Source: Geobacter sp. OR-1 (GTDB lineage: Bacteria > Desulfobacterota > Desulfuromonadia > Geobacterales > DSM-12255). Taken from it: a stretch of DNA of 24,000 nucleotides. The translations under genes and the position numbers were made by a program. Below the pieces are notes generated by a model. The model was not told the DNA's origin and ran no database searches. It saw nothing but the letters and a program-made list of their open reading frames with translations. Location: NCBI RefSeq assembly GCF_000813145.1, contig NZ_BAZF01000011.1, forward strand, positions 110,774-134,773, read 5' to 3'. Of the stretch, positions 230-24,000 are shown piece after piece. Within the stretch, counting starts at the first letter, position 1. Each line of letters starts with the position of its first letter.

Positions 230-1090
230 TCAGATACCGGCCCCGTCCTTGAGTATGCCGAACTCCAGCTCCCCCAGCCGGTCGCCCCACCCCTGCGCCC
301 AGCCCCTCAACTCCGTGACGCTAAGCGGCTTCGGTGGCTCCTGCCAAACAGAGCGGTCCTCAATGACCTGCCGCGCCAGTTTCCGGTACAGCTGGGCGTG
401 GCTCGACTCCGGTGCTGCCTCGATCACGGTTTTACCGTACAGTTCGCTATGCCTGACCACCAGGGAGCGCGGGATAAGACTGCTGACCCTCGTGTTGACC
501 TGGCTGGCGAAATCGGCAACAAACGACTCCTCGAAGCTCCCGGTCAGGCTATTGCCGATAATATCGAGAGCAGAGGCCGGAAACTGCCGGCTAACGCTCC
601 TGATATAGGAGTTGGCCGCATAAAACGACATCAGGTCGCCGGAAGTAACGATGAACGTCCGCAGCTGCAGGGACAGGTTCAGATGGGAAACCAAGCCGCT
701 GCAGCCGGCTTCTCCCGGGATATCGTAGATGATGAATTCCGGCTTGAGCGTAGCGGTGAGATCAAACTCACCCAGCAACTGCAAGGCCTTAGCGATGCCC
801 CTGGATGCGCATTCTTCTTCAGCCAGGGAGTCGCCCACTTCGACACAGGCGATGCCGCGATATCCCGGAACGACCAGATCCGACAACTTCACTGCCCCGC
901 CCGAGCGGATATAGTCGAGGAGGGTCGCAACCTCCTGCCTGCCGTGGACCAGGATACCAGTATCGCTCTTCAGGTCACAGCCGACCAGCATCACGCTTTT
1001 GCCGGCCTCGGCAAGGGCCGCGCTCAGGTTTGCCGCCAGGGTCGTCTTCCCCACCCCGCCTTTCCCGTAAAGAGCAATCTGCTGTGTCAT
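230..1090 (-). CDS. NifH/BchL/CfbC-family ATPase (nitrogenase iron protein-like, 4Fe-4S ligands retained)
   Basis: 286 aa. It carries the P-loop YGKGGVGKTT, the switch I-like VGCDLKSDT (NifH has VGCDPKADST) and IVTSGDLMSFYAAN (NifH has IVCSGEMMAMYAAN). Both cluster-ligand positions are kept: EEECASRGI for NifH Cys97 and GEAGCSGL for NifH Cys132. Confidence 0.8.
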   Translation of the reverse strand: MTQQIALYGKGGVGKTTLAANLSAALAEAGKSVMLVGCDLKSDTGILVHGRQEVATLLDYIRSGGAVKLSDLVVPGYRGIACVEVGDSLAEEECASRGIAKALQLLGEFDLTATLKPEFIIYDIPGEAGCSGLVSHLNLSLQLRTFIVTSGDLMSFYAANSYIRSVSRQFPASALDIIGNSLTGSFEESFVADFASQVNTRVSSLIPRSLVVRHSELYGKTVIEAAPESSHAQLYRKLARQVIEDRSVWQEPPKPLSVTELRGWAQGWGDRLGELEFGILKDGAGI

Positions 1091-1308: not shown

Positions 1309-1491
1309 TTAGATGCCGCTGCCGTGAATATGTTCTTGCCGGCTCAATCTGATCTTTTCGCTCTTGTCGATCTGGATCACCCTGCCATCCTGAATGACCA
1401 GGGTTACCGTGCCGTAGCGGATGATCCGGAGCGCCTCCCGAACCTGGCGCTCCAGCTCCCCATTCCACAGCTCACCTGCCGGGCCGGCCAC
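1309..1491 (-). CDS. YezD/DUF2292 family small protein
   Basis: 60 aa. The core GTVTLVIQDGRVIQIDKSEKIRL matches the DUF2292 pattern as I recall it. The GTG start overlaps the cysK TAG stop by 1 nt, which indicates translational coupling. Confidence 0.7.
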   Translation of the reverse strand: MAGPAGELWNGELERQVREALRIIRYGTVTLVIQDGRVIQIDKSEKIRLSRQEHIHGSGI

Positions 1492-2444
1492 TAGATCCCC
1501 TCGAACAGCGCTGTCGAGAGATACCGCTCAGCACCGTCAGGAAGGATGACTACAATGGTCTTGCCTGCGAATTCGGGATCATAGGCAAGTCGGGTCGCCG
1601 CTGCTACTGCGGCGCCGCAGGAGATACCGACCAGCAGACCCTCTTCCTTGGCCAGGCGTTTGGCAAACTCGATGGCATCGTCGCTGGCAATCTGCTCGAC
1701 GCGATCGACAATGCTCAGGTCCAGGGTATCCGGGATAAACCCGGCGCCGATCCCCTGGATCTTGTGCGGACCCGGCTTCAGCTCCTGGCCGGCGAGCTTC
1801 TGCGAGATAACCGGGCTCTCCTTCGGCTCGACCGCGACCGAGATGATCTTTTTCCCCTTGGTGTTCTTGATGTATCTCGATATGCCGGTGATGGTGCCGC
1901 CGGTGCCGACCCCGGAAACGATGACATCAACCTTGCCGTCGGTATCGTTCCAGATCTCCGGGCCGGTGGTCTTTTCGTGGATGGCCGGGTTCGCCGGGTT
2001 CTTGAACTGCTGCGGAATGAACCAGCGTGCCGGATCGGACGCCGCAATCTCTTCGGCCTTGGATATCGCCCCTTTCATACCTTCTGCTCCCGGTGTCAGG
2101 ATCAGGTTGGCGCCAAGGGCGGCAAGCACGCGGCGGCGCTCAATGCTCATGGTCTCGGGCATGGTCAGGGTCAGCTTGTAGCCGCGGGCTGCGGCCACAT
2201 AGGCCAGGGCAATGCCGGTGTTGCCGCTGGTCGGCTCGATGATCTCCACCCCGGGCTTCAGCACGCCGCGCTCTTCTGCGTCCCAGATCATGTTGGCGCC
2301 GATGCGGCACTTGACCGAGTAAGCCGGGTTGCGCCCTTCCACCTTGGCGAGCACGGTTGCCCCTGCCCCCTTGGTGATATGGTTGAGCCTTACCAGTGGC
2401 GTGTTGCCGATGGACTGCGAGTTGTCTTCATAGATGCGTGACAT
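1491..2444 (-). CDS. cysK: Cysteine synthase A (O-acetylserine sulfhydrylase)
   Basis: 317 aa. It has the N-terminal IGNTPLVRL, the PLP-lysine motif [19 protein letters not shown] and [11 protein letters not shown]. The SD GGGAGGAA lies upstream of the ATG. Confidence 0.93.
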
Positions 2445-2522: not shown

Positions 2523-2984
2523 TCAGATCGAAAAATCAAGCTGCTTGGAAAGCCTCTGACGCTCGAACTCGCTTCTTTCAATCATATCGGCCAGCGTTAC
2601 CTTGTCAACAACCGCGGAAACCGCCTTCTGGACATCCGACATTACCAGCCTGGTGGCACAGGTCGGCAGATCGTGGCATTCCGGGCAGGCGCTCTGCGCG
2701 TTTTCGCCAAGGCACTGCACCGGCGCCAGGTCACCCTCAAAGGCGCGGATGATGCTGCCTAGAGTAATGGCAGAAGGAGTTTTGGCCAGCCAGTAACCGC
2801 CTCCCGGCCCTTTCCTGCTGGCCAGTATCCCCTGGCTCTTGAGGGTCAGCAGGATCGCCTCCAGGAACTTCTTGGGGATATTCTCGGCCTGGGCCAGCTC
2901 GGCGATCAGGAAGCAATCCTTGTCCGTGGAACGGGCCATGAAGCTGAGCGCCTTGATGGCGTATTTGCTGCGCATTGAAATCAT
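2523..2984 (-). CDS. Rrf2-family transcriptional regulator (CymR/IscR-like, possible Fe-S ligands)
   Basis: MISMRSKYAIKALSFMA... is a typical Rrf2 N-terminal wHTH, with GPGGGYWLA. A four-Cys cluster follows: CLGENAQSACPECHDLPTC. I chose the start at 2984 (AGGA 5 nt upstream; 2975 is also possible) because the longer track ORF, which runs to 3041, would cover the predicted promoter. Confidence 0.85.
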   Translation of the reverse strand: MISMRSKYAIKALSFMARSTDKDCFLIAELAQAENIPKKFLEAILLTLKSQGILASRKGPGGGYWLAKTPSAITLGSIIRAFEGDLAPVQCLGENAQSACPECHDLPTCATRLVMSDVQKAVSAVVDKVTLADMIERSEFERQRLSKQLDFSI

Positions 2985-3012
2985 ATTTCCTACCATTACT
3001 ATAGTTATTATT

Positions 3013-3041
3013 GTTTTATCTCGTTTCTCCGGACATGTCAA
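3013..3041 (-). promoter_or_regulatory. Candidate sigma70 promoter for the rrf2 gene
   Basis: The minus strand reads TTGACA (3041..3036), a 17-nt spacer, then TAAAAC (3018..3013). Confidence 0.45.
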
Positions 3042-5467: not shown

Positions 5468-5626
5468 ACAGGGGGCAAGTGTAGCCCATTACCACCTGAC
5501 CGGAACAAGATGCCTCGCCACCGGAAATAAAGAGCCCGGCTCCTTGCCAATTCCCCAGCCTTGGTTATTAATTGAATAAGAGACCATATTACACCAACCG
5601 GCTTGCCACCGATTGAGGAGAGCGCC

Positions 5627-8600
5627 ATGCTACGTTCCGATGAAGACCTTTCCGGCTTGATGCCCGAGGAGAGGGATGCGTGTGCCATCATCTGCTACAT
5701 CAACAAGGAAGGCCGCCCCACCCACGGCAATGTGCAGCGTACCATCGAGGCGCTGATCAGGATGGGGCACCGGGCTGGGGAGATAAACGGCGAAGGTGAC
5801 GGCTGCGGCATCCTGACCGATATTCCGCGCCAGATCTGGGGCGAAATCCTTGACGGCGCCGGGTTGTCGTCTGAATTAGTTAATGATCCCGGCTTTAGCA
5901 TCGGCCATATCCTGATTGAAAAAAGCGACCTGGACCGTCATCCGGAGCTGCAGGCCGCCATCCTCCAGGCCATGCGCTCTGCCGGGCTGGAGGTCCTGGT
6001 GGAGCGCCCCGCTCAGGTGCGCAGCGAAGTGCTGGCCAAACGGGCCAGGGCAGGCGAACCGCTTTTGTGGCAGGTAGGGCTCCGTTGTCCGGAGCCGCGC
6101 CAGGCAGCCTGCCGCCTCTTCTCCCTCCAGGTGCAGCTGGAGCAGGAGTTCCCGGTCCATGTCGCCTCGCTCTCCACCGACGTGACGGCATACAAGGTCC
6201 ACGGCGCGCCGGAGATCCTGTCCCGCTACTACCCGGAGCTGAAGCGGCGCGAGTTCCAGTCCGCGGTCACCATCGGCCACAGCCGTTATTCCACCAATAC
6301 CCTCCCGACGGTGCTGCGCGCCCAGCCGTTCTCGCTCATCGGCCACAACGGCGAGATCAACACCATCGCCCGGCTGCGTGAAGAGGCCCGGATGATGGGG
6401 ATTACCCTGCCTGCCGGCGGCAGCGACTCCCAGGACCTGAACCGGACCCTGGAAGGGCTGATCTGCAGGTACGGGCTGTCCCTGTTCGAGGCGATGGAAC
6501 TGGTGTTCCCGCCGGTGTTCAGCATCATGGACCGGATGCCGCCGGATCTGCAGGCGATGTACGGCTGGTTCCGGCGCTTCCTCAAGGCGAGCGCCCAGGG
6601 GCCGGCCGCCATCATCGCCCGCTACGGCGACCGGTGCGTGTTCAGCGTCGATGCCATGGGGCTTCGCCCCCTCTGGGTCGGGGAGACGGACCGGGAACTG
6701 TTCGCCTCGTCCGAGCTCGGGGTGGTCCCCCATGAGGAGGTCATGAGCGATCCCAAGGCGCTGGCGCCGGGGGAAAAGATCGGGGTACGGCTGGTCCCCG
6801 GCCGGGAGCCGAAGTTCCTGGAGCACCATGAACTTCGGCTGGAGGTGCTGGAGCTGTTCCGCAAGAGGACCAACCTGGCGGCTCGGGCAAAAAGCCTGCT
6901 CAAGCCGGGCGAGCTGCTAGCGGCCGATAGCGGGCGCCATGAGCGGGTCTGGCAGAAAAACAGCCGGTTTCTCCAGGAGAACCTGCTCTCGGCCTTTGCC
7001 TGGAAGTCGAGCGACCAGCAGAACCTGCGGGAAATGGCACGGAGCGGCCAGGACCCGATCGCCTCGCTCGGTTATGACGGGCCGCTGGCCGCCCTTGCCC
7101 TCTCCCGCCAGAACCTTGCCGACTATTTCAAGGAGCAGGTGGCGGTGGTGACCAACCCGGCCATTGATCAGGAACGCGAGGCGGAACTGTTCTCCACCAG
7201 AGTCTATCTCGGCCCCAGGCCCACCCTGCGAGGCCCGGCCCTGCCGGCGATGGCGCTGGAACTGCCGCTTCTTCTCGGCGGAAGCCGGCTTTCCGCTTCC
7301 GAAGACGAGTCGCCCCTTGCCGCAGAGTTCGGCACCTGCAGCTTGGAGTCGTTGCTGACCCGCTTCGGCCGTCGCCGCAGCCGCAGCCTCTCCTGCACCA
7401 TGGGGCGGGGCGAATCGCTGCAGCAGGCCCTGGACCGCCTAAAAGCCGAGGCGGTGGCCGCGGTCCGCCGCGGGGTGGGGATCATTGTGCTGGACGACAG
7501 CATGGCGTTCACCCATCCCCGCAGTTTTCTCGACCCGTTCCTGGCAGTGGCGGTCCTGCACAAGGCACTCAAGGAGACCGGTCCGGAGAACGGCGCCTGC
7601 CTGCGGCGCCGCACCTCGCTCGTGTTTCGCTCCGGGGCGCTCAGGAATCTTCACGACCTGATCTTTGCCCTCGGCATGGGGGCCGATGCCCTCTGCCCCT
7701 ACCTGATGTGGGAACAGGCAGCTACCGAGGCAGGCGGGGTGAGGAACCTCATGACCGTGCTGTCCAAGGGGCTGCAAAAGGTCATATCAACCATGGGAAC
7801 CCATGAGATTGGCGGCTACGGCAAGTATTTCGCCTCCATCGGCCTGTCTACCGAGCTGGCACGGATCTTTGAAACGCCCAACTTCTGCGGCAGCGACACC
7901 GGTGGGTTGACCATCGGCCAGTTGGAGCAGGAGAACCGTTCGCGCAACCTCGTGGCCCGGAGCAGGGACAAGCAGCCGGTGCCGGTCCAGTTCCGCCTCT
8001 ACCCGCGTATCTGGAAACTGGTCGGCCAGGTGGCGCGCATGGAGGAGACCTATGCCGACCTCTCCAAGACAATCCAGCAGCTGGAAACAGAGAACCCGCT
8101 GGCCATCCGCCACCTGATCGATATCCGCTTCAAGGGGGAGCTGGCGGTAGATCCGGCTGATGTGGACACCACGATAGGCAACCACGATCTGCCGATCCTG
8201 ATCTCGGCCATGAGCTTCGGCTCCCAGGGTGAGACCCCGTTCCGCATCTACGCTGAGGCGGCCCGGAGGCTCAACATCGTCTGCATGAACGGCGAAGGGG
8301 GGGAGATCGCCGACATGCTCGCGAAATACCGTAAGAACCGGGGGCAGCAGATCGCCTCGGGACGGTTCGGGGTCAACATGGAATTCCTCAATTCGGCCGA
8401 CTTCCTGGAGATCAAGGTCGGCCAGGGGGCCAAGCCGGGCGAAGGGGGGCATCTGCCGGGGTTCAAGGTGACGGCAAAGATCGCCGCGGCCCGGCACGCC
8501 ACCCCGGGGGTGTCGCTGATCTCGCCGTCGAACAACCACGACATCTATTCCATCGAGGACCTGGCCCAGATCATCGAGGAGCTCCGCACCGCCAACCCAA

Positions 8601-15616: not shown

Positions 15617-15880
15617 ATGAAAATCGAATATCCTGCCATATTTGATCCTGCCGACGAAGGCGGATACACAATTACCTTCCATGACTTCCCTGAAGCCATA
15701 AGTGAAGGTGACACCCTTGAAGAAGCCCATTATAACGCCATAGAAGTGTTGGATCTTACTCTGCAATCAAGAATGGAAGATAACGAGATTATCCCTCTTC
15801 CTCACTCCGAATCAGGGGCTAATGTTCATATGATAGCGCCGGATGTCAATATCCAGGCAGCCTTGCTCTCGATTGGCTAA
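15617..15880 (+). CDS. HicB-family (UPF0150-like) antitoxin N-terminal domain, probably a frameshifted remnant
   Basis: 87 aa. MKIEYPAIFDPADEGGYTITFHDFPEAISEGDTLEEAHYNAIEVL is the classic HicB N-terminal fold sequence. It lies in a visibly AT-rich island. A BrnA/DUF4415-like tail is in another frame up to 15963 (see findings). Confidence 0.6.
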   Translation: MKIEYPAIFDPADEGGYTITFHDFPEAISEGDTLEEAHYNAIEVLDLTLQSRMEDNEIIPLPHSESGANVHMIAPDVNIQAALLSIG

Positions 15881-16083: not shown

Positions 16084-16422
16084 CTATTTTTCTTCTAATT
16101 CCTTATCAGAAGATACCAAGCATAGAAAAACCATCATTATGCCTAGGGTAATTGCAAATAGAATCAAAGCTGTTTTGCTGTAGTGGCTAAGAAATCTTGA
16201 CATAATTGCACCTATTACAATTCCAACTGGAACTAGGGCTCTCGGTGCCTTCGATAAAGTCGCCTTGAACTTCCACACTACCACCATTAAGGGGATTGAT
16301 ATTGAAGCGGCAAAAAATGACAGTTTAGTTAATGTCATTGCTCCAACATCTTGATAACCAAATCCGAGCATGGCTATTAACCCTAAAATAGAAGCAAATA
16401 AGGCTTTACCCTTGTTACCCAT
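16084..16422 (-). CDS. Hypothetical small integral membrane protein (3-4 TM helices), AT-rich
   Basis: 112 aa with several hydrophobic segments (ALFASILGLIAMLGFG, FFAASISIPLMVVVW, LVPVGIVIGAIM, ALILFAITLGIMMVFLCLV). Its codon usage and G+C are clearly unlike the neighbours, and it lies opposite in orientation to the nuo genes. I recognise no family. Confidence 0.55.
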   Translation of the reverse strand: MGNKGKALFASILGLIAMLGFGYQDVGAMTLTKLSFFAASISIPLMVVVWKFKATLSKAPRALVPVGIVIGAIMSRFLSHYSKTALILFAITLGIMMVFLCLVSSDKELEEK

Positions 16423-16752: not shown

Positions 16753-17220
16753 ATGATTCCTGAATCGCTGAAGACCGAACTGACAGACCGCATCGCCTCA
16801 GCCGTCACCCCGCGGGAGGCGGCGGTGGATGTGCTGAAGATGCTACAGGCCCATTACGGCTGGGTGACCGACGAGGCGGTTGCTGAGGCAGGGGAACTGC
16901 TCGGGCTCTCCACCCTGCAGGTGGACGAACTGGCGACCTTTTACGAGATGCTGTACCGCCGTCCGGTGGGGAAGCGGGTGATCCATGTCTGCGACTCCAT
17001 CTCCTGCTGGGCCATGGGGGGGGAAACGCTCATGGCCCACCTGGCACGCCATCTGGGAGTGCAGCCCGGCGAGACCACGATGGACGGCATGTTCACCCTG
17101 CTCCCCTGCTGCTGCCTCGGCAACTGCGGGGAGGCGCCGACCCTGATGATCGGCGACACCCTGTACGGGCTGGTGACACCGGAACTGGCAGAGCAGATAA
17201 TGGCAAAGGAGCGGACATGA
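16753..17220 (+). CDS. nuoE: NADH-quinone oxidoreductase subunit E (2Fe-2S)
   Basis: 155 aa. It carries the thioredoxin-like 2Fe-2S ligands in VCDSISCWAMGG and CCCLGNCGEAP. Confidence 0.9.
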   Translation: MIPESLKTELTDRIASAVTPREAAVDVLKMLQAHYGWVTDEAVAEAGELLGLSTLQVDELATFYEMLYRRPVGKRVIHVCDSISCWAMGGETLMAHLARHLGVQPGETTMDGMFTLLPCCCLGNCGEAPTLMIGDTLYGLVTPELAEQIMAKERT

Positions 17221-17525
17221 AACCACAAGGAATCGTCCTGATGGCGTCATGCCTCTTGCTCTGGGCAACGGTTGCCGCAGCAACGGACGGCAAGGCGCTG
17301 TTCGACCGCCATTGCTCCAGCTGCCACTACCAGGGGGACAACCCGACATATCCGAGCAGGCCGCTGTTCCGCCTGTACCGCGAGGCAAACGGGCTGCGGA
17401 CTCAAAAGGACCTGGTGGCCAAGATGCGCCGCGGCGGCCAGGGGATGCCGAGCTTTGCAGCCAAACAGCTTTCCGACGCGGATGCCATGGCAATTGCCGG
17501 CTACATCATCCGGACCTTTGACTGA
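17217..17525 (+). CDS. Monoheme class I c-type cytochrome, secreted
   Basis: 102 aa. It has a signal peptide (MKPQGIVLMASCLLLWATVAAA/TDG), one CSSCH heme-binding site and a distal Met candidate in GGQGMPSF. The ATG overlaps the nuoE TGA (ATGA). Confidence 0.85.
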   Translation: MKPQGIVLMASCLLLWATVAAATDGKALFDRHCSSCHYQGDNPTYPSRPLFRLYREANGLRTQKDLVAKMRRGGQGMPSFAAKQLSDADAMAIAGYIIRTFD

Positions 17526-17556
17526 GCCATATGTTGCCGGCAATTGAGGATGAACC

Positions 17557-17895
17557 ATGATCAGAATCAAGCGCGTCTATAGCGAGCCGGAAGCGGAAGA
17601 CGGCATCCGTATCCTGGTGGACCGACTCTGGCCGCGGGGGGTGGCAAAGGAAGCGGCCCGCATCGATGAATGGTGCAAGGAGATCGCGCCGAGCAATGAA
17701 CTACGGCAGTGGTTCGGCCATGATCCGGCCAGGTGGGACGAATTCCGGGGCCGCTACCGCCAGGAGCTGGCAGGGCACGAAGATATCCTGACACGGCTTC
17801 GGAATATTGCGCAAAAAGGGGCCGTGACCCTGCTCTATGCAGCCAAAGACGAAGAACACAACAATGCCGTGGTTTTGAAAGAGCTGATCGAGTGA
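17557..17895 (+). CDS. DUF488 (YeaO-like) protein
   Basis: 112 aa. RVYSEPEAEDGIRILVDRLWPRG ... LLYAAKDEEHNNAVVL closely follows E. coli YeaO as I recall it. The stop overlaps the nuoF ATG (TGATG). Confidence 0.85.
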   Translation: MIRIKRVYSEPEAEDGIRILVDRLWPRGVAKEAARIDEWCKEIAPSNELRQWFGHDPARWDEFRGRYRQELAGHEDILTRLRNIAQKGAVTLLYAAKDEEHNNAVVLKELIE

Positions 17896-19184
17896 TGGAA
17901 CAGGTGCTTTTTCGCCATAACCGCCCCGGCCGGTGCGTCACCTTTGGGGAATACCGCGACGAGGGGGGATTCGAAGCGCTCAGGAAGGCGCTGGCCGGGA
18001 TGTCGCCCGTTGACGTCCAGCAGACCGTGATCGACTCCGGCCTTCGCGGGCGCGGCGGCGCCGGGTTCCCGACCGGCAAGAAATGGTCGTTCGTGCCGCG
18101 CGACCTGGCGGGGCGGTATCTGATCTGCAACTGCGACGAGATGGAGCCCGGCACCTACAAGGACCGGCTGCTGCTGGAGGCCAACCCCTATTCCCTGGTG
18201 GAGGGGATGGCGCTGGCCGCCTACAGCCTCGGCGTGAATCATGCCTTCGTCTTTATCCGCCGCGGTTACGAGCAGGGTGCGGGCAATCTCAGGCGGGCAA
18301 TCGCCGAGGCAGCGGCAGCAGGGCTGCTGGGCGAAAACATCCTCGGTTCCGGCTTTTCCCTGCATCTGGACGTCCACCAGTCGGCCGGGCGGTATATCTG
18401 CGGCGAAGAGACCGCACTGATGAACGCACTGGAAGGGAAGCGGGCCAATCCAAGGTCCAAGCCACCCTTCCCTGCGGTGAAAGGGCTCTGGGGGCGGCCG
18501 ACCGTGGTCAACAACGTGGAGACCCTTGCCAATATTCCGTATATCGTCGCCAATGGCGCCGCCTGGTTCAAGGGGCTGGCAAAGATCCCGGAGGCCAGCG
18601 GCACCAAGCTGTTCTGCGTCAGCGGCCATGTCCGGAACCCGGCCTGCCTGGAGCTGCCGCTCGGTACCACGCTCGGCGAGGTGATTGACAACCACTGCGG
18701 CGGGATGCGTGCCGAGAGTTCATTCAAGGCCTGCCTGCCGGGCGGGGCCTCCACGCCGTACCTGACCCGTGACCACTGGAACCTGGCGCTGGATTTCGAC
18801 ACCGTGGCCAGGGCCGGGTCGCGGCTCGGCACCGGCGGCATCGTGGTCTTTGACCAGACGACCTGCATGGTGGCAGCCACGCTCAACCTAGGACGGTTCT
18901 ACAGCCGCGAATCGTGCGGCTGGTGCACGCCCTGCCGTGAAGGGCTGCCGTACGTGGTCCACCTGCTGGAAAGCATCGAGAACGGCGAAGGTCTCGACGA
19001 ACATATCGAAATCCTGGCCGAGCACCTGAACTATCTGAACTACGCCTTCTGTCCGCTGGCGCCGGGCGCAATGGGGCCGGTAGAGGGACTGTTGAAGCAT
19101 TTCAAGGAAGAGCTGCAGGAACATATCATCAAGAAACAATGCCCTTTCAGACCAAACAGACCGGGAGGAGTTCATGGGAACTGA
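17895..19184 (+). CDS. nuoF: NADH-quinone oxidoreductase subunit F (FMN, NADH site, 4Fe-4S N3)
   Basis: 429 aa from MEQVLFRH. It has GRGGAGFPTGKKW, YICGEETALMNALEG and ESCGWCTPCREG. The upstream extension in the track ORF, from 17733, is Arg/Pro-rich and overlaps DUF488. Confidence 0.92.
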   Translation: MEQVLFRHNRPGRCVTFGEYRDEGGFEALRKALAGMSPVDVQQTVIDSGLRGRGGAGFPTGKKWSFVPRDLAGRYLICNCDEMEPGTYKDRLLLEANPYSLVEGMALAAYSLGVNHAFVFIRRGYEQGAGNLRRAIAEAAAAGLLGENILGSGFSLHLDVHQSAGRYICGEETALMNALEGKRANPRSKPPFPAVKGLWGRPTVVNNVETLANIPYIVANGAAWFKGLAKIPEASGTKLFCVSGHVRNPACLELPLGTTLGEVIDNHCGGMRAESSFKACLPGGASTPYLTRDHWNLALDFDTVARAGSRLGTGGIVVFDQTTCMVAATLNLGRFYSRESCGWCTPCREGLPYVVHLLESIENGEGLDEHIEILAEHLNYLNYAFCPLAPGAMGPVEGLLKHFKEELQEHIIKKQCPFRPNRPGGVHGN

Positions 19185-19719
19185 TGGCTGCTGCTGTCGA
19201 TTCAACTGGAAACAGGTCGGTGACATTGCCCTGGGGAGGCCGCACCTCGGCCCGATGATGCATTTGGCTGTCTACCGGCTGATGCAATACACCCTCAGGG
19301 AGATGATCTGCCGGGAATACGGCCACGACAAGGCTTCCGACCTGCTGCGGACTGCCGGACTGCGTGCCGGCGAGGAGTTCTGCGCGAATATGCTGAACTG
19401 CAGCCAGGATTTCAACGGGTTTATTGCCGAACTGCAGGAAAAGCTGCGGGAGTTGGGGGTCGGTATCCTGCGGATCGAAAAGGCCGATCTGGAACAGATG
19501 AATTTCACCCTCACTGTTGGCGAGGACCTGGACTGTTCCGGGCTGCCGGTAACCGGAGCAGCGGTCTGCGAATACGACGAAGGTTTCATTGCCGGCGTGC
19601 TCGGCAGATACACCGGAAAAGCCTTTGCGGCCAAAGAGGTGGACTGCTGGGCAACCGGCGACCGAACCTGCCGTTTCAGCGTGACCCTTGCCGATCAGGT
19701 CGGTGACAATGGCAACTAG
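19174..19719 (+). CDS. V4R (4-vinyl reductase) domain protein, Cys-rich
   Basis: 181 aa, with GGAGGAG upstream. The C-terminal V4R-type signature is EVDCWATGDRTCRF. There is an N-terminal CCC triplet (MGTDGCCCR). It overlaps the nuoF end by 11 nt. Confidence 0.7.
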   Translation: MGTDGCCCRFNWKQVGDIALGRPHLGPMMHLAVYRLMQYTLREMICREYGHDKASDLLRTAGLRAGEEFCANMLNCSQDFNGFIAELQEKLRELGVGILRIEKADLEQMNFTLTVGEDLDCSGLPVTGAAVCEYDEGFIAGVLGRYTGKAFAAKEVDCWATGDRTCRFSVTLADQVGDNGN

Positions 19720-20620
19720 CGCCGACATCATCAAGCATTGCCGGGAGCGGATCGAGGCCCTGCTTTCCGGAGAGACACCTGACCCGATCGAGATCCCGGC
19801 TAAGATATCGCCTGAGGCAAGGGAGCTTTGTCACGCCTGCAACCGGCTGATAACCGCGCAGAAAGAGGCCGCCACCTTCCTTGCGGCCCTGGCCAACGGT
19901 AACCTGGAAGTGGAACCGCCGCCGCGAAACCTGCTCATCTCCCCTTTCAAGCAGCTCCATGCCAGCCTGCGCCACTTGGTCTGGCAGACGAGCCAGGTGG
20001 CAGCCGGCGATCTCGACCAGCATGTCGATTTCCTCGGCGAGCTTTCCACATCGTTCAACAAGATGATCGAATCGCTGAGGCAGAAACAAACCGTTGAGGA
20101 ACTGCTCCGGTACCTGAGCAACCACGACCCGATGACAGGTTTATACAACCGGCTCTACTTCAATGAGGAGCTGGCCCGGCTCGACCGGAGCCGTCAGATC
20201 CCGTCCAGCATCATCATCGCTGACCTGAACGGCTTGAAGCAGGTCAACGACTCCCAGGGCCACGAGGCCGGCGACCTCCTGATCCTGGCCGCTGCCGAGA
20301 TCATCCGCGCCGGGGTCAGGGCCGACGACGTGGCGGCCCGGATCGGTGGCGACGAATTTGCCGTCATCCTGCCGTTTACCCGCTACGATGAGGCCGAGAC
20401 CGTACTGAAACGGATCAGGAAGAAGGAAGCGATTCAACGCAACCGGAGCGACCTGCAGGTCCACATGGCATACGGGCTCGCAACTGCCGAGCAGCAGGGG
20501 GAGATGGCCGCGGCGCTGAAACTAGCCGACAAGCGGATGTACGAGGAAAAATTCGCCGCCAGGAACAGCTCTTGCCGCTGCTCGGCAAACGGGGAGCACA
20601 AGGAAGAATGCCGCGACTGA
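19709..20620 (+). CDS. Soluble diguanylate cyclase (HAMP-like linker plus GGDEF with I-site)
   Basis: The HAMP-like segment is AAGDLDQHVDFLGELSTSFNKMIESL. The GGDEF domain shows DPMTGLYNR, an intact RIGGDEF, and RADD exactly 5 residues upstream of GGDEF (an RxxD I-site). It overlaps V4R by 11 nt and nuoG by 13 nt. I preferred the ATG at 19709 to the TTG at 19688. Confidence 0.85.
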   Translation: MATSADIIKHCRERIEALLSGETPDPIEIPAKISPEARELCHACNRLITAQKEAATFLAALANGNLEVEPPPRNLLISPFKQLHASLRHLVWQTSQVAAGDLDQHVDFLGELSTSFNKMIESLRQKQTVEELLRYLSNHDPMTGLYNRLYFNEELARLDRSRQIPSSIIIADLNGLKQVNDSQGHEAGDLLILAAAEIIRAGVRADDVAARIGGDEFAVILPFTRYDEAETVLKRIRKKEAIQRNRSDLQVHMAYGLATAEQQGEMAAALKLADKRMYEEKFAARNSSCRCSANGEHKEECRD

Positions 20621-22491
20621 TCATCGACTCCATACCGGTCATTGCCCCGGACGGCACCAGCGTCCTGGAAGCGGCCGCAAGCATCGGCATCCGGATCCCC
20701 CACTTCTGCTGGCATCCGGCGCTCGGCAAGGCGGGCGCCTGCCGGGTCTGCGCCGTCAAACTGCTGGAAGGGCCGGTCAAGGGTATCCAGATGTCATGCA
20801 TGCTCCCGGCGGCAGACGGGATGGTGGTCTCCACAACCGATAGCGAAGCAGTGGCCATGCGGCGCCATGTCATCGAGTGGCTGATGATCAACCACCCGCA
20901 CGACTGCCCGGTCTGCGACGAAGGCGGGGAATGCCTCCTCCAGGATTTCACCATTGCCGGCGGCCACGGTATCAGGCGTTACGACGGCAGGAAACGGACC
21001 CACCGGAACCAGGATCTCGGCCCGCATATCGAGCACGAGATGAACCGCTGCATCCAGTGCTACCGCTGCGCCCGCTTCTACCAGGAGTTTGCCGGCGGAG
21101 ACGACTTCGGGGTCATGGGGAGCGCGGCCAGGGTCTATTTCGGCCGGTTCCACGACGGCCCGCTCGAATCCCCCTTTTCCGGCAACCTGGTGGACATCTG
21201 CCCCACCGGTGTCTTCACCGACAAGACGGCCCGGTTCCGGGCTCGGTACTGGGACTACGACATGGCGCCGTCCATCTGCCCGCACTGCTCTCTTGGGTGC
21301 AATACCACGCCGGCGGCCCGGTACCGGGAGCTGCTGAAGATAATTGCCCGGAGAAACGACCAGGTCAACGGCTGGTTCATCTGCGATCGAGGGCGATTCG
21401 GCACCATCGGGGTCAACGATCCGGATCGGCCGCGGCTGCCTCTGGTGGACGGCCGGGAAGCGGCCTGGGACGAGGCGATCGACGACCTGCTGATCAGGAT
21501 CAGGGAGTTCCGGGCCCTGAACGGTTCCGAAAGCATCGCACTGGCCGGTTCTTCCCGGATGACCCTGGAAGGAAACCTGCTGCTGATACAGCTTGCCGGA
21601 ATCCTCGGTTGTTCGCTCAGCTTTTACGCCGGCGCAACGGAGCAGGCAGAGGCGATGGCGGCGGTAACGCTGTTGTCAGGGGAGCGTAGCGCCTCGATGA
21701 GCGACGTTGCGCAGAGCGACTGCATCGTCATTACCGGCTGCAACCTGCTCGAAGCCGGGCCGATGATGGCCCTGGCAGTGCGGCAGGGATGGCGCCGCGG
21801 GGCAAAGGTCTTCCTGGTCGATGCGCCATCGGACCAGTTGCCGTTTGAGTACACCAGTGCCGGGTCATTGGCCGAAATCCCGCTTGCCGCGGCGAAACAG
21901 CCGGTGATCATCTGCTCTGTAACCGGGGCAGATCGGATACTGCCGGTATTGGCGTCGGCTCCCGGCGCCAGGATTGCCGTGCTGTTTACCGGTCCCAACA
22001 GCTTTGCCACGGCGTTGCTGGCGCATGAGCACGGAACAGTTCCCCTGGAAGAGGCGATCAGCAGCGGCAGGGTCAATGGAATCATCTGCTTTGAGCCGGA
22101 CTCGCCGGAGCAGCTCCCCGCTGATATCACGCTGCTGGCAACAGCCGACTGGCGCCCTTCTGCGGCCGTATCCCGGGCAGCGGTATTTCTTCCCGCAACT
22201 CCCTGGGTCGAGATGGACGGCACCTTTATCAACAACGAGGGGCGGTCGCAGCGGTTCCGGCGGGTAATGCGCCCCGGCCTGCCGGTCAAGGGGCTCGACC
22301 CGGCATTCCATCCTCCCCGGGTGCATAGCAGCGAGCCGCCCGGCGGCCTGCCCCGGCCAGGGGCCGATATCATCGCCGCCATAATTGGCCGGATTACGGG
22401 CGAGCCGGCGCCATCCCCCTATTCCGGCCGCTGGGAGCCCCTGGCCGATATCGACCCGGAAGGGCCTGGGATCAGGGTGCAGACCCTATGA
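20608..22491 (+). CDS. nuoG: NADH-quinone oxidoreductase subunit G (short form)
   Basis: 627 aa from MPRLIIDS, behind AGGAAG. It has the 2Fe-2S region CWHPALGKAGACRVCAV, the His-ligated cluster motif HPHDCPVCDEGGEC and the 4Fe-4S motif CIQCYRCARF...CPTG. The molybdopterin-like domain is shorter than in E. coli NuoG. Confidence 0.88.
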   Translation: MPRLIIDSIPVIAPDGTSVLEAAASIGIRIPHFCWHPALGKAGACRVCAVKLLEGPVKGIQMSCMLPAADGMVVSTTDSEAVAMRRHVIEWLMINHPHDCPVCDEGGECLLQDFTIAGGHGIRRYDGRKRTHRNQDLGPHIEHEMNRCIQCYRCARFYQEFAGGDDFGVMGSAARVYFGRFHDGPLESPFSGNLVDICPTGVFTDKTARFRARYWDYDMAPSICPHCSLGCNTTPAARYRELLKIIARRNDQVNGWFICDRGRFGTIGVNDPDRPRLPLVDGREAAWDEAIDDLLIRIREFRALNGSESIALAGSSRMTLEGNLLLIQLAGILGCSLSFYAGATEQAEAMAAVTLLSGERSASMSDVAQSDCIVITGCNLLEAGPMMALAVRQGWRRGAKVFLVDAPSDQLPFEYTSAGSLAEIPLAAAKQPVIICSVTGADRILPVLASAPGARIAVLFTGPNSFATALLAHEHGTVPLEEAISSGRVNGIICFEPDSPEQLPADITLLATADWRPSAAVSRAAVFLPATPWVEMDGTFINNEGRSQRFRRVMRPGLPVKGLDPAFHPPRVHSSEPPGGLPRPGADIIAAIIGRITGEPAPSPYSGRWEPLADIDPEGPGIRVQTL

Positions 22492-23553: not shown

Positions 23554-24000
23554 ATGAATGAAACCGAACTATATAAGAGCATTGTCGATGGAATGTACGA
23601 GGGGGTCTATTTCGTCGACCAGAACCGGAAGATTACCTTCTGGAACAAGGGGGCGGAACGGATCACCGGCTTCAGCGCCCAAGAGGTCCTGGGCAGCTCA
23701 TGTTCCGACAATATCCTGGTGCATATTGATGAATGCGGCAAGGGGCTCTGCATAATCAGCTGCCCTCTGATGGCCGCCATCCAGGAAAACTGCGGCCACA
23801 AGAATGACCAGGTGTTTCTTCATCACAAGAACGGGCAGCGGATTCCGGTGAGTATCAGCGTCTCGACTATCTGTGACGCTTCCGGCCAGCCGGTGGGGGC
23901 AGTGGAAGTCTTCTGGGAAAACCCCAGGCGCGATGTCGATGAGCAGTTGCTGGCAGACCTCAAGAAGGCGGCTCTCATTGACCAGTTGACCGGCCTCCCC
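23554..24000 (+). CDS. PAS-domain diguanylate cyclase (partial, continues past the right edge)
   Basis: My translation is MNETELYKSIVDGMYEGVYFVDQNRKITFWNKGAERITGFSAQEVLG...VEVFWENP...LIDQLTGLP. This is a PAS fold followed by the start of a GGDEF domain (DxLTGLPNR type). AAGGA lies upstream. The ORF is open to the window end, so it is absent from the ORF track. Confidence 0.8.
   Translation, partial: MNETELYKSIVDGMYEGVYFVDQNRKITFWNKGAERITGFSAQEVLGSSCSDNILVHIDECGKGLCIISCPLMAAIQENCGHKNDQVFLHHKNGQRIPVSISVSTICDASGQPVGAVEVFWENPRRDVDEQLLADLKKAALIDQLTGLP

Follow-up and report, generated by a model that had tools for sequence, protein, structure and literature searches.

What does a diguanylate cyclase with a small sensor-like partner do between two genes for the NADH-oxidizing subunits of complex I? 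This question is raised by a stretch of 24,000 nucleotides (nt) from Geobacter sp. OR-1 (contig NZ_BAZF01000011.1, positions 110,774 to 134,773; in the following, the window is this whole stretch), in which the genes of a V4R protein and of a GGDEF protein stand between nuoF and nuoG. A sequence-only reading of the locus had proposed that a cyclic di-GMP (c-di-GMP) output is wired here to the NADH/redox flux of this isoform of complex I, or that the pair docks on the peripheral arm of the enzyme. After comparison with other genomes, the two genes do not look like a complex-I-specific device; they are one copy of a widespread, self-contained signalling cassette. Most diguanylate cyclases are still without a known input signal, and a highly conserved small V4R protein that accompanies c-di-GMP enzymes and kinases across hundreds of genomes, as a partner or as a fused domain, offers an entry to a new class of sensory input.

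The V4R and cyclase genes between nuoF and nuoG

Pfam matches and coordinates confirmed the gene order that had been read from the letters, i.e. a V4R protein of 181 amino acids (aa) and a GGDEF protein enclosed by nuoF and nuoG. The features of this part of the window are:

17895-19184, plus strand: nuoF, 429 aa from the ATG at 17895 (Pfam Complex1_51K at 2e-46, NADH_4Fe-4S, SLBB)
19174-19719, plus strand: stand-alone V4R protein, 181 aa, putative input or sensor half of the cassette (Pfam V4R, homologues, predicted fold)
19522-19548, plus strand: loop E117-D-L-D-C121-S-G-L-P125 of the V4R protein, family-specific and invariant in 22 homologues
19567-19671, plus strand: predicted zinc-site residues C132, E155, C158 and C166 of the V4R protein (invariance and spacing)
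19709-20620, plus strand: soluble HAMP-GGDEF diguanylate cyclase, 303 aa, putative transducer and output half (Pfam HAMP and GGDEF)
19709-20113, plus strand: N-terminal helices (aa 4-19 and 35-62) and HAMP (aa 75-135) of the cyclase (tblastn, consensus; helices from the structure model)
20117-20566, plus strand: GGDEF catalytic domain, aa 137-286 (Pfam GGDEF, 5.9e-33)
20318-20329, plus strand: RADD I-site, aa 204-207
20345-20359, plus strand: GGDEF motif, aa 213-217
20608-22491, plus strand: nuoG, 627 aa (Pfam Fer2_4, NADH-G_4Fe-4S_3, Fer4_Nqo3 at 4e-27, Molybdopterin)

Both genes overlap their neighbours, as the sequence-only reading had stated. The nuoF stop codon (19182-19184) lies behind the V4R ATG (19174) with an overlap of 11 nt, the V4R stop codon (19717-19719) behind the cyclase ATG (19709) with 11 nt, and the cyclase stop codon (20618-20620) behind the nuoG ATG (20608) with 13 nt. 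For the cyclase, the start was taken as the ATG at 19709, while the mechanical list of open reading frames (ORFs) gives a longer version from a TTG at 19688. Translational coupling of the pair with nuoF and nuoG is suggested by this arrangement. The further idea that the overlaps lock the pair to NuoF and NuoG in a special manner did not stand, since start and stop codons also overlap at nuoA/nuoBCD, nuoE/cytochrome c gene, DUF488 gene/nuoF and nuoG/nuoH, those of the cytochrome c and DUF488 genes thereby overlapping the flanking nuo genes; compaction is operon-wide and not special to the pair. Also, no convincing terminator was found between nuoE and nuoH in the window. The only link to complex I that the locus shows is compaction and, presumably, shared transcription, by which the cyclase would be made whenever this isoform is made.

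The V4R protein matches Pfam V4R (PF02830) with an E value of 1.2e-14 and 54.5 bits against a cutoff of 31. This was its sole match in the Pfam scan, which gave none to the haem-binding domain HNOB. Its family is very large, with homologues in 5688 clusters, and is conserved to an unusual degree. A sequence search of solved structures yielded marginal matches only (MJ1460, 0.013; PoxR/MopR, 0.06), so that a fold search was needed. The AlphaFold2 (AF2) model, with a predicted local distance difference test (pLDDT) score of 75, resembles the sensory domains of PoxR, MopR and DmpR (Foldseek E value ~5e-7, TM-score ~0.6, at a sequence identity of only 14-19%) and also Bet3/TRAPP and MJ1460.

By position count, the protein contains exactly ten cysteines (positions 6, 7, 8, 46, 70, 76, 121, 132, 158 and 166), the number given earlier. 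The residues invariant across 22 diverse homologues include C70, E117-D-L-D-C121-S-G-L-P125, C132, E155, C158 and C166. The spacing of C132/E155/C158/C166 (23/3/8) equals that of XylR C149/E172/C175/C183, a zinc site proven in PoxR, MopR and DmpR, and the window V4R is accordingly spaced and predicted to carry a Cys-Glu-Cys-Cys (Cys3Glu) zinc site as in XylR and MopR. The conserved cysteines are hence those of the classical V4R zinc site plus C121 and C70. The EDLDCSGLP loop may serve as a site for a ligand, a metal or the partner; in the AF2 model, the pocket loop 119-130 is predicted with low confidence (low pLDDT). The best NCBIfam match is MsvR (NF053755; 1.1e-16, 61.3 bits against a cutoff of 220), whose profile is covered only at positions 106-236, i.e. 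in its V4R half, and whose equivalog cutoff is missed. The N-terminal CCC triplet, which had been pointed out before, is present in the window protein but alone there among the 22 aligned homologues, Geoanaerobacter pelophilus having CC; as a cofactor site it was rejected for this lack of conservation.

The cyclase matches Pfam GGDEF (PF00990) with an E value of 5.9e-33 and 114.4 bits against a cutoff of 23.8, TIGR00254 with 115 bits against 37.4, and Pfam HAMP (PF00672) with 33.6 bits against 25. No transmembrane segment was found, the highest Kyte-Doolittle mean over 19 residues being 1.22; therefore, its HAMP domain is to be regarded as a cytoplasmic one, whereas classical HAMP members follow a transmembrane helix. 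In the AF2 model (pLDDT 90), the part ahead of the GGDEF fold is all-helical, with helices at 4-19, 35-62, 75-98 and 111-138. RADD (R204-A-D-D207) precedes G213 by five residues, and the earlier description of a HAMP-like linker without transmembrane region, an intact GGDEF motif and an RxxD five residues upstream proved correct. Among 40 homologues, D172, N180, D181, D189, R211, G213, G214 and E216 are invariant and R204, D207, D215 and F217 nearly so (at least 90%). D189 lies nine residues past N180, which we take to be the N335/D344 pattern of PleD, in contrast to the Hypr enzymes of Geobacter; this position argues for a c-di-GMP-specific and against a Hypr-type (cGAMP-specific) enzyme. As far as residues can tell, these features indicate an active-type, product-inhibited, c-di-GMP-type cyclase. 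The closest fold match in the PDB was SiaD in complex with SiaC.

The cassette in other genomes and in fusion proteins

A genome scan with the window V4R detected 585 confirmed loci across several phyla. We kept 80 of these, whose V4R proteins have an identity of 54-68% to that of the window; they belong to Desulfobacterota, Chromatiaceae, Competibacteraceae, Bacteroidales, Clostridia, Pirellulales and Lentisphaerales. The next gene downstream shares about aa 1-135 of the window cyclase (tblastn), i.e. the N-terminal helices and HAMP, in 76 of the 80 loci. The outputs attached to this module differ: a Pfam scan of 66 partners and the window cyclase assigned GGDEF to 27, HisKA/HATPase to 23, SpoIIE to 6 and Guanylate_cyc to 1, while about 10 were without output domain. 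The latter are short proteins of ~200 aa with N-terminal helices, HAMP and a short tail that bears no recognizable output (loci L012, L035, L041, L053, L054, L065, L066, L072 and L076; L012 has a weak zinc-ribbon match). All-versus-all clustering of the ORFs flanking the 80 loci revealed no recurrent neighbour besides the partner. Because the partners share one module and no other neighbour recurs, the two genes form a self-contained cassette of a sensor followed by a transducer. Also, the distances of the V4R proteins and of the N-terminal partner regions co-vary (Mantel r 0.52; permutation maximum 0.19). The cassette stands outside a nuo context in 71 of the 80 loci, which speaks against a complex-I-specific device; a nuo location was found in 5 of the 80 scanned loci, plus loci that were looked up, and represents one lineage-specific context.

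Apart from these stand-alone proteins, the same type of V4R occurs in fusions. A profile search of 1.84 billion representatives yielded 1095 members, 131 of them at E values of 1e-30 or below. The best 150 representatives include 20 proteins of more than 500 aa that have V4R at the extreme C-terminus. Seventeen of these and a 360-aa EAL-V4R fragment (P0398) were scanned for domains, and 14 of the 18 proteins have the architecture (dCache or SBP_bac_3)-GGDEF-EAL-V4R or EAL-V4R, the others being REC-HD-GYP-V4R (one) and PAS-V4R (three). Thus, to judge from domain architecture, this V4R type appears to be wired to c-di-GMP turnover both in cis and in trans. The fused V4R domains retain the zinc site and most of the DLDCSG loop, without C70. 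One PAS-PAS-V4R gene is followed 31 nt downstream by a hybrid histidine kinase gene.

A survey from 2025 noted that PYP-V4R fusions "lack an apparent signal relay domain" (PMC12826048). If these fusions belong to the same subfamily, the missing relay domain would be accounted for by a partner that is encoded by a gene of its own. Two proteins from our search that had been considered as PYP-V4R fusions, P0007 and P0037 (314-316 aa), were rejected, both being tandem V4R-V4R proteins. Such tandem proteins of 314-319 aa (P0007, P0037 and P0361) come from other organisms; on reading P0007 and P0037, the first V4R copy turned out to be without the cysteines and the second to be canonical. A literature search returned no description of the V4R-HAMP cassette or of its position in a complex I operon; the sequence-only reading had known of no described c-di-GMP module embedded in complex I.

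The pair in the mosaic nuo operons of Geobacteraceae

The order nuoF-V4R-GGDEF-nuoG was found in at least nine other Geobacteraceae loci from several genera, so the co-occurrence inside nuo operons that the earlier reading had put up for checking does exist across genomes. By tblastn, the order nuoBCD-nuoE-(cytochrome c)-(DUF488)-nuoF-V4R-GGDEF-nuoG-nuoH is present in metagenome-assembled genomes of Geobacteraceae (L001, L006, L007, L030 and L074). G. pelophilus (L081) has the same order with the same overlaps of 11, 11 and 13 nt, a V4R protein 86% identical to that of the window and a NuoF 87% identical. The order is also present in Geobacter argillaceus (L087) and in the complete genome CP000698 of Geotalea uraniireducens Rf4 (L082; order also in L082/L083), and the arrangement has therefore been publicly available ever since Rf4 was sequenced.

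In Geobacter sulfurreducens and Geobacter metallireducens, the pair is absent and the slot between nuoF and nuoG is filled by a single hydrophobic protein of 189-190 aa that falls into no Pfam family (L084, 8269-8841; L085, 8269-8838); in Pelotalea chapellei, the pair is absent as well and a 264-aa hydrolase-like protein takes its place. As remnants of the V4R protein or its partner, the 190-aa protein of G. sulfurreducens and the 264-aa protein of P. chapellei were dismissed for want of BLASTP similarity; Pfam gave a weak DUF4013 match and a weak hydrolase match only. The closest operons of this second complex I type (nuo-2), those of G. sulfurreducens and G. metallireducens, thus do without the pair, which argues against an obligatory role as subunit or docked component.

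For the history of the slot, a neighbour-joining (NJ) tree of NuoF and NuoG and distance correlations were used in place of a V4R tree. In the NuoF/NuoG tree, the two Geobacter species without the pair branch from within the group of its carriers. Pairwise distances of NuoF and V4R correlate with r 0.78, which speaks for long vertical co-inheritance and not for a recent arrival. The gene order looks ancestral on this sequence evidence, and the simplest history would be an old insertion with later replacement.

The operon itself is a mosaic with variable non-nuo genes at almost every junction, a point that matters for annotation and engineering. The remaining features of the window are:

230-1090, minus strand: NifH/FrxC-family ATPase
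1491-2444, minus strand: pyridoxal phosphate (PLP)-dependent enzyme
2523-3041, minus strand: Rrf2 regulator
5603-10159: glutamate synthase large subunit
12805-13200: nuoA
13197-15569: triple-fused nuoBCD, 790 aa
15570-16750: low-GC insert that splits nuoBCD from nuoE (GC content ~0.45 versus ~0.62)
15617-15880: HicB-like antitoxin fragment, 87 aa, truncated
16084-16422, minus strand: membrane ORF, 112 aa
16637-16664: promoter-like site just upstream of nuoE
16753-17895, plus strand: stretch of nuoE, cytochrome c and DUF488 genes (Pfam)
17217-17525, plus strand: monohaem cytochrome c with a signal-peptide-like N-terminus (Pfam)
17557-17895, plus strand: DUF488 protein (Pfam)
23554-24000, plus strand: second cyclase gene, PAS-GGDEF, 74 nt past nuoH and running off the window (PAS 9e-12)

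The fused nuoBCD marks the second ("other"-clade) complex I isoform of Geobacteraceae. At the junction of nuoBCD and nuoE, where the window has its low-GC insert, no HicA toxin gene was seen near the HicB-like fragment, and G. pelophilus has 5.5 kb with FdhD, AFOR and a toxin-antitoxin pair. The order nuoE-cytochrome c-DUF488 recurs in L081, L082, L085 and L087. Between nuoE and nuoF, DUF488 is kept in G. sulfurreducens, G. metallireducens, G. uraniireducens, G. argillaceus and G. pelophilus, and the cytochrome c in the same species except G. sulfurreducens. The nuoG-nuoH junction holds YjdM and a PAS-GAF histidine kinase in G. sulfurreducens (L084, 11416-13017), a PNPOx protein in G. metallireducens and an Ada_Zn protein in G. 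argillaceus, and the nuoH-nuoI junction of the compared Geobacter operons holds ankyrin or unknown proteins. An orthologue of the PAS-GGDEF gene, encoding 300 aa, also follows nuoH in G. pelophilus (L081, 14385-15287); together with the PAS-GAF kinase of G. sulfurreducens, this means that signalling genes recur in this operon. The PAS domain of the second cyclase contains a Cys-rich stretch, CSDNILVHIDECGKGLCIISCP.

Upstream of nuoA, a 424-aa ORF (10853-12127) follows a MarR gene (10306-10737) and has a weak CdhD match only (2.6e-11). The corresponding region between glutamate synthase and nuoA contains a gene for acetate kinase in G. sulfurreducens, G. metallireducens and G. argillaceus. The NifH/FrxC ATPase, the PLP enzyme and the Rrf2 regulator upstream of glutamate synthase bear no relation to the V4R-GGDEF pair.

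Mode of action, rival explanations and known systems

The reading that we regard as probable is that of a two-gene cassette in which a zinc-containing V4R input acts on a HAMP cyclase and which is co-expressed with complex I. V4R and cyclase would be made together, and V4R, by analogy with known stand-alone sensors, would bind the cyclase dimer at its stalk of N-terminal helices and HAMP; the state of V4R would then alter the register of HAMP and stalk and thereby set c-di-GMP synthesis. This state may depend on a small ligand that occupies the V4R pocket or on oxidation of the Zn-thiolate/Cys121 site, as in MsvR. The tie to complex I would consist in co-expression; the pair might also read NADH or redox state directly. 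In evolutionary terms, the cassette would have entered the second (nuoBCD-type) operon between nuoF and nuoG in an ancestor of the Geobacteraceae and would mostly have been inherited there since.

Several points weigh against this reading. Contact between V4R and partner is argued from adjacency, co-divergence and analogy only, and the co-divergence would also be expected from simple co-inheritance. For two V4R fusions, one PAS-V4R and one EAL-V4R, comparison of the genes downstream with the N-terminal partner domain gave no significant similarity. A C70-C121 disulfide as a general switch is disfavoured by the absence of C70 from the fused V4R domains. Finally, V4R is short and evolves slowly, so that an NJ tree of this protein alone did not bring the nuo-embedded copies together in a single clade, and more than one insertion is therefore possible.

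Among the other explanations, a neutral passenger is the nearest competitor, possible though rather doubtful: the cassette would have settled in a permissive junction and hitch-hike with the operon, its signal and targets being unrelated to complex I. The mosaic nature of the operon fits well, with the low-GC insert carrying a HicB fragment and the 5.5-kb insert of G. pelophilus at the same junction, as do the varying contents of the slot between genera and the self-contained cassette elsewhere. Such a passenger would hardly have kept its order through family-level divergence, with tight spacing or overlaps in four named species, while other slots turn over, and the correlation of NuoF and V4R distances speaks against it as well. 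Functional wiring, in which V4R senses NADH/NAD+, the quinone redox state or reactive oxygen species from the NuoF flavin and c-di-GMP reports or feeds back on flux, makes use of the same conservation, since the slot is kept across several Geobacteraceae genera down to ~70% NuoF identity. It can also draw on the precedent of MsvR, whose V4R Zn/Cys site is redox-sensitive, on the prevalence of the cassette in organisms of anoxic habitats (judged from record titles) and on the further signalling genes of the operon, i.e. the PAS-GGDEF gene past nuoH in the window and G. pelophilus and the PAS-GAF kinase gene between nuoG and nuoH in G. sulfurreducens. We nevertheless hold it to be unlikely: most loci lie outside nuo and have no recurrent respiratory neighbour, Geobacter sensu stricto has kept the operon but not the pair, which was lost or replaced there, no c-di-GMP receptor is recognizable in the operon, and the nuo-embedded V4R proteins are the same as the others at the invariant positions. 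Docking, with V4R and/or the cyclase as accessory subunits on NuoF/NuoG of the peripheral arm, draws its sole support from gene position and the start/stop overlaps with nuoF and nuoG. It is highly improbable, given the cassettes of other genomes that lie far from any nuo gene and serve kinase, phosphatase and cyclase outputs, the unrelated proteins of 190 aa (G. sulfurreducens and G. metallireducens) or 264 aa (P. chapellei) in the same slot, and the unrelated passengers at the other junctions, namely cytochrome c, DUF488, YjdM, PNPOx, ankyrin and Ada_Zn proteins.

A different question is whether this V4R type is primarily a ligand sensor. It could instead be a transmitter, an adaptor or a nucleotide-binding module (for c-di-GMP, pGpG or GTP) of c-di-GMP networks, which might pass signals of upstream domains on to partner transducers, and its place at the extreme C-terminus of GGDEF-EAL, EAL, REC-HD-GYP and PAS fusions, the PAS-PAS-V4R gene with its hybrid kinase 31 nt on and the published PYP-V4R fusions without apparent relay domain (PMC12826048; membership in the subfamily being presumed) would agree with this. 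However, fold and zinc site are those of the proven small-molecule sensors PoxR, MopR and DmpR, a stand-alone V4R has no upstream domain to relay from, and no nucleotide-binding motif is recognizable in V4R; we consider this explanation improbable. More speculative, and in our judgement still less likely, is an extension of the cassette reading by which the V4R subfamily is an unrecognized, widespread input module that acts in trans on N-terminal-helix/HAMP receivers of cyclases, kinases and phosphatases and in cis on EAL and HD-GYP enzymes, with the Zn-thiolate/Cys121 site as a redox or ligand switch; through the copy captured inside nuo, c-di-GMP synthesis would then report the redox state of the NADH module. 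Returning to the two-gene cassette that is presumably co-expressed with complex I, its position in Geobacteraceae places c-di-GMP synthesis, which controls biofilm formation and electrode attachment, in the expression unit of one of two complex I isoforms, so that a link of sessility with the respiratory configuration can be put to the test.

Regulation of an adjacent cyclase or kinase by a stand-alone sensor is known from other systems, as represented by H-NOX and SiaC/SiaD. H-NOX regulates its partner by direct binding (PMC8738867), and V4R and H-NOX (HNOB) have been reported as similar domains (PMC5847659). The cassette resembles the HnoX/HnoK type in that a small stand-alone sensor gene lies beside a kinase or a diguanylate cyclase/phosphodiesterase gene with variable output, and the corresponding adjacency of sensor and partner was seen in the 76 cassette loci with a shared partner module. 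It differs in that the window V4R is without the haem-binding H-NOX signature and has a predicted Cys3Glu zinc site, and in that the cassette partners share a specific module of N-terminal helices and HAMP. In the SiaC-SiaD system, a small partner binds the SiaD stalk and promotes the active dimer (PMC8457831). SiaD of Pseudomonas aeruginosa is, like the window cyclase, a soluble cyclase with a long helical stalk before GGDEF, an I-site and a small co-operonic protein. However, the window cyclase reaches only 110 bits against the NF038266 cutoff of 290 and carries HAMP, and SiaC, whose control is by phosphorylation (SiaA/SiaB), does not belong to the V4R proteins, whereas the upstream partner of the window cyclase is V4R. 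Aer2 is another cytoplasmic HAMP signalling protein without transmembrane segment that has further helices ahead of HAMP, like the window cyclase; its output is a kinase-control module of the methyl-accepting chemotaxis protein type, whereas that of the window cyclase is GGDEF and its input is apparently a separate protein.

On the side of the sensor, the V4R cysteines of MsvR make DNA binding redox-sensitive, and 10 μM H2O2 reverses binding (PMC3729527). The spacing of its C206/C232/C240 (26/8) equals that of the cysteines in the window V4R. In contrast, MsvR is specific to methanogens, has an N-terminal helix-turn-helix and acts on DNA, while the window protein consists of V4R only and is paired with a HAMP transducer. 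The A domains of XylR, DmpR, MopR and PoxR have the same fold and the same zinc ligands with the same spacing as the window V4R, but they are fused to a sigma-54 AAA+ activator and bind phenols or xylenes, whereas the EDLDCSGLP loop and C70 are invariant features peculiar to the family of the window V4R.

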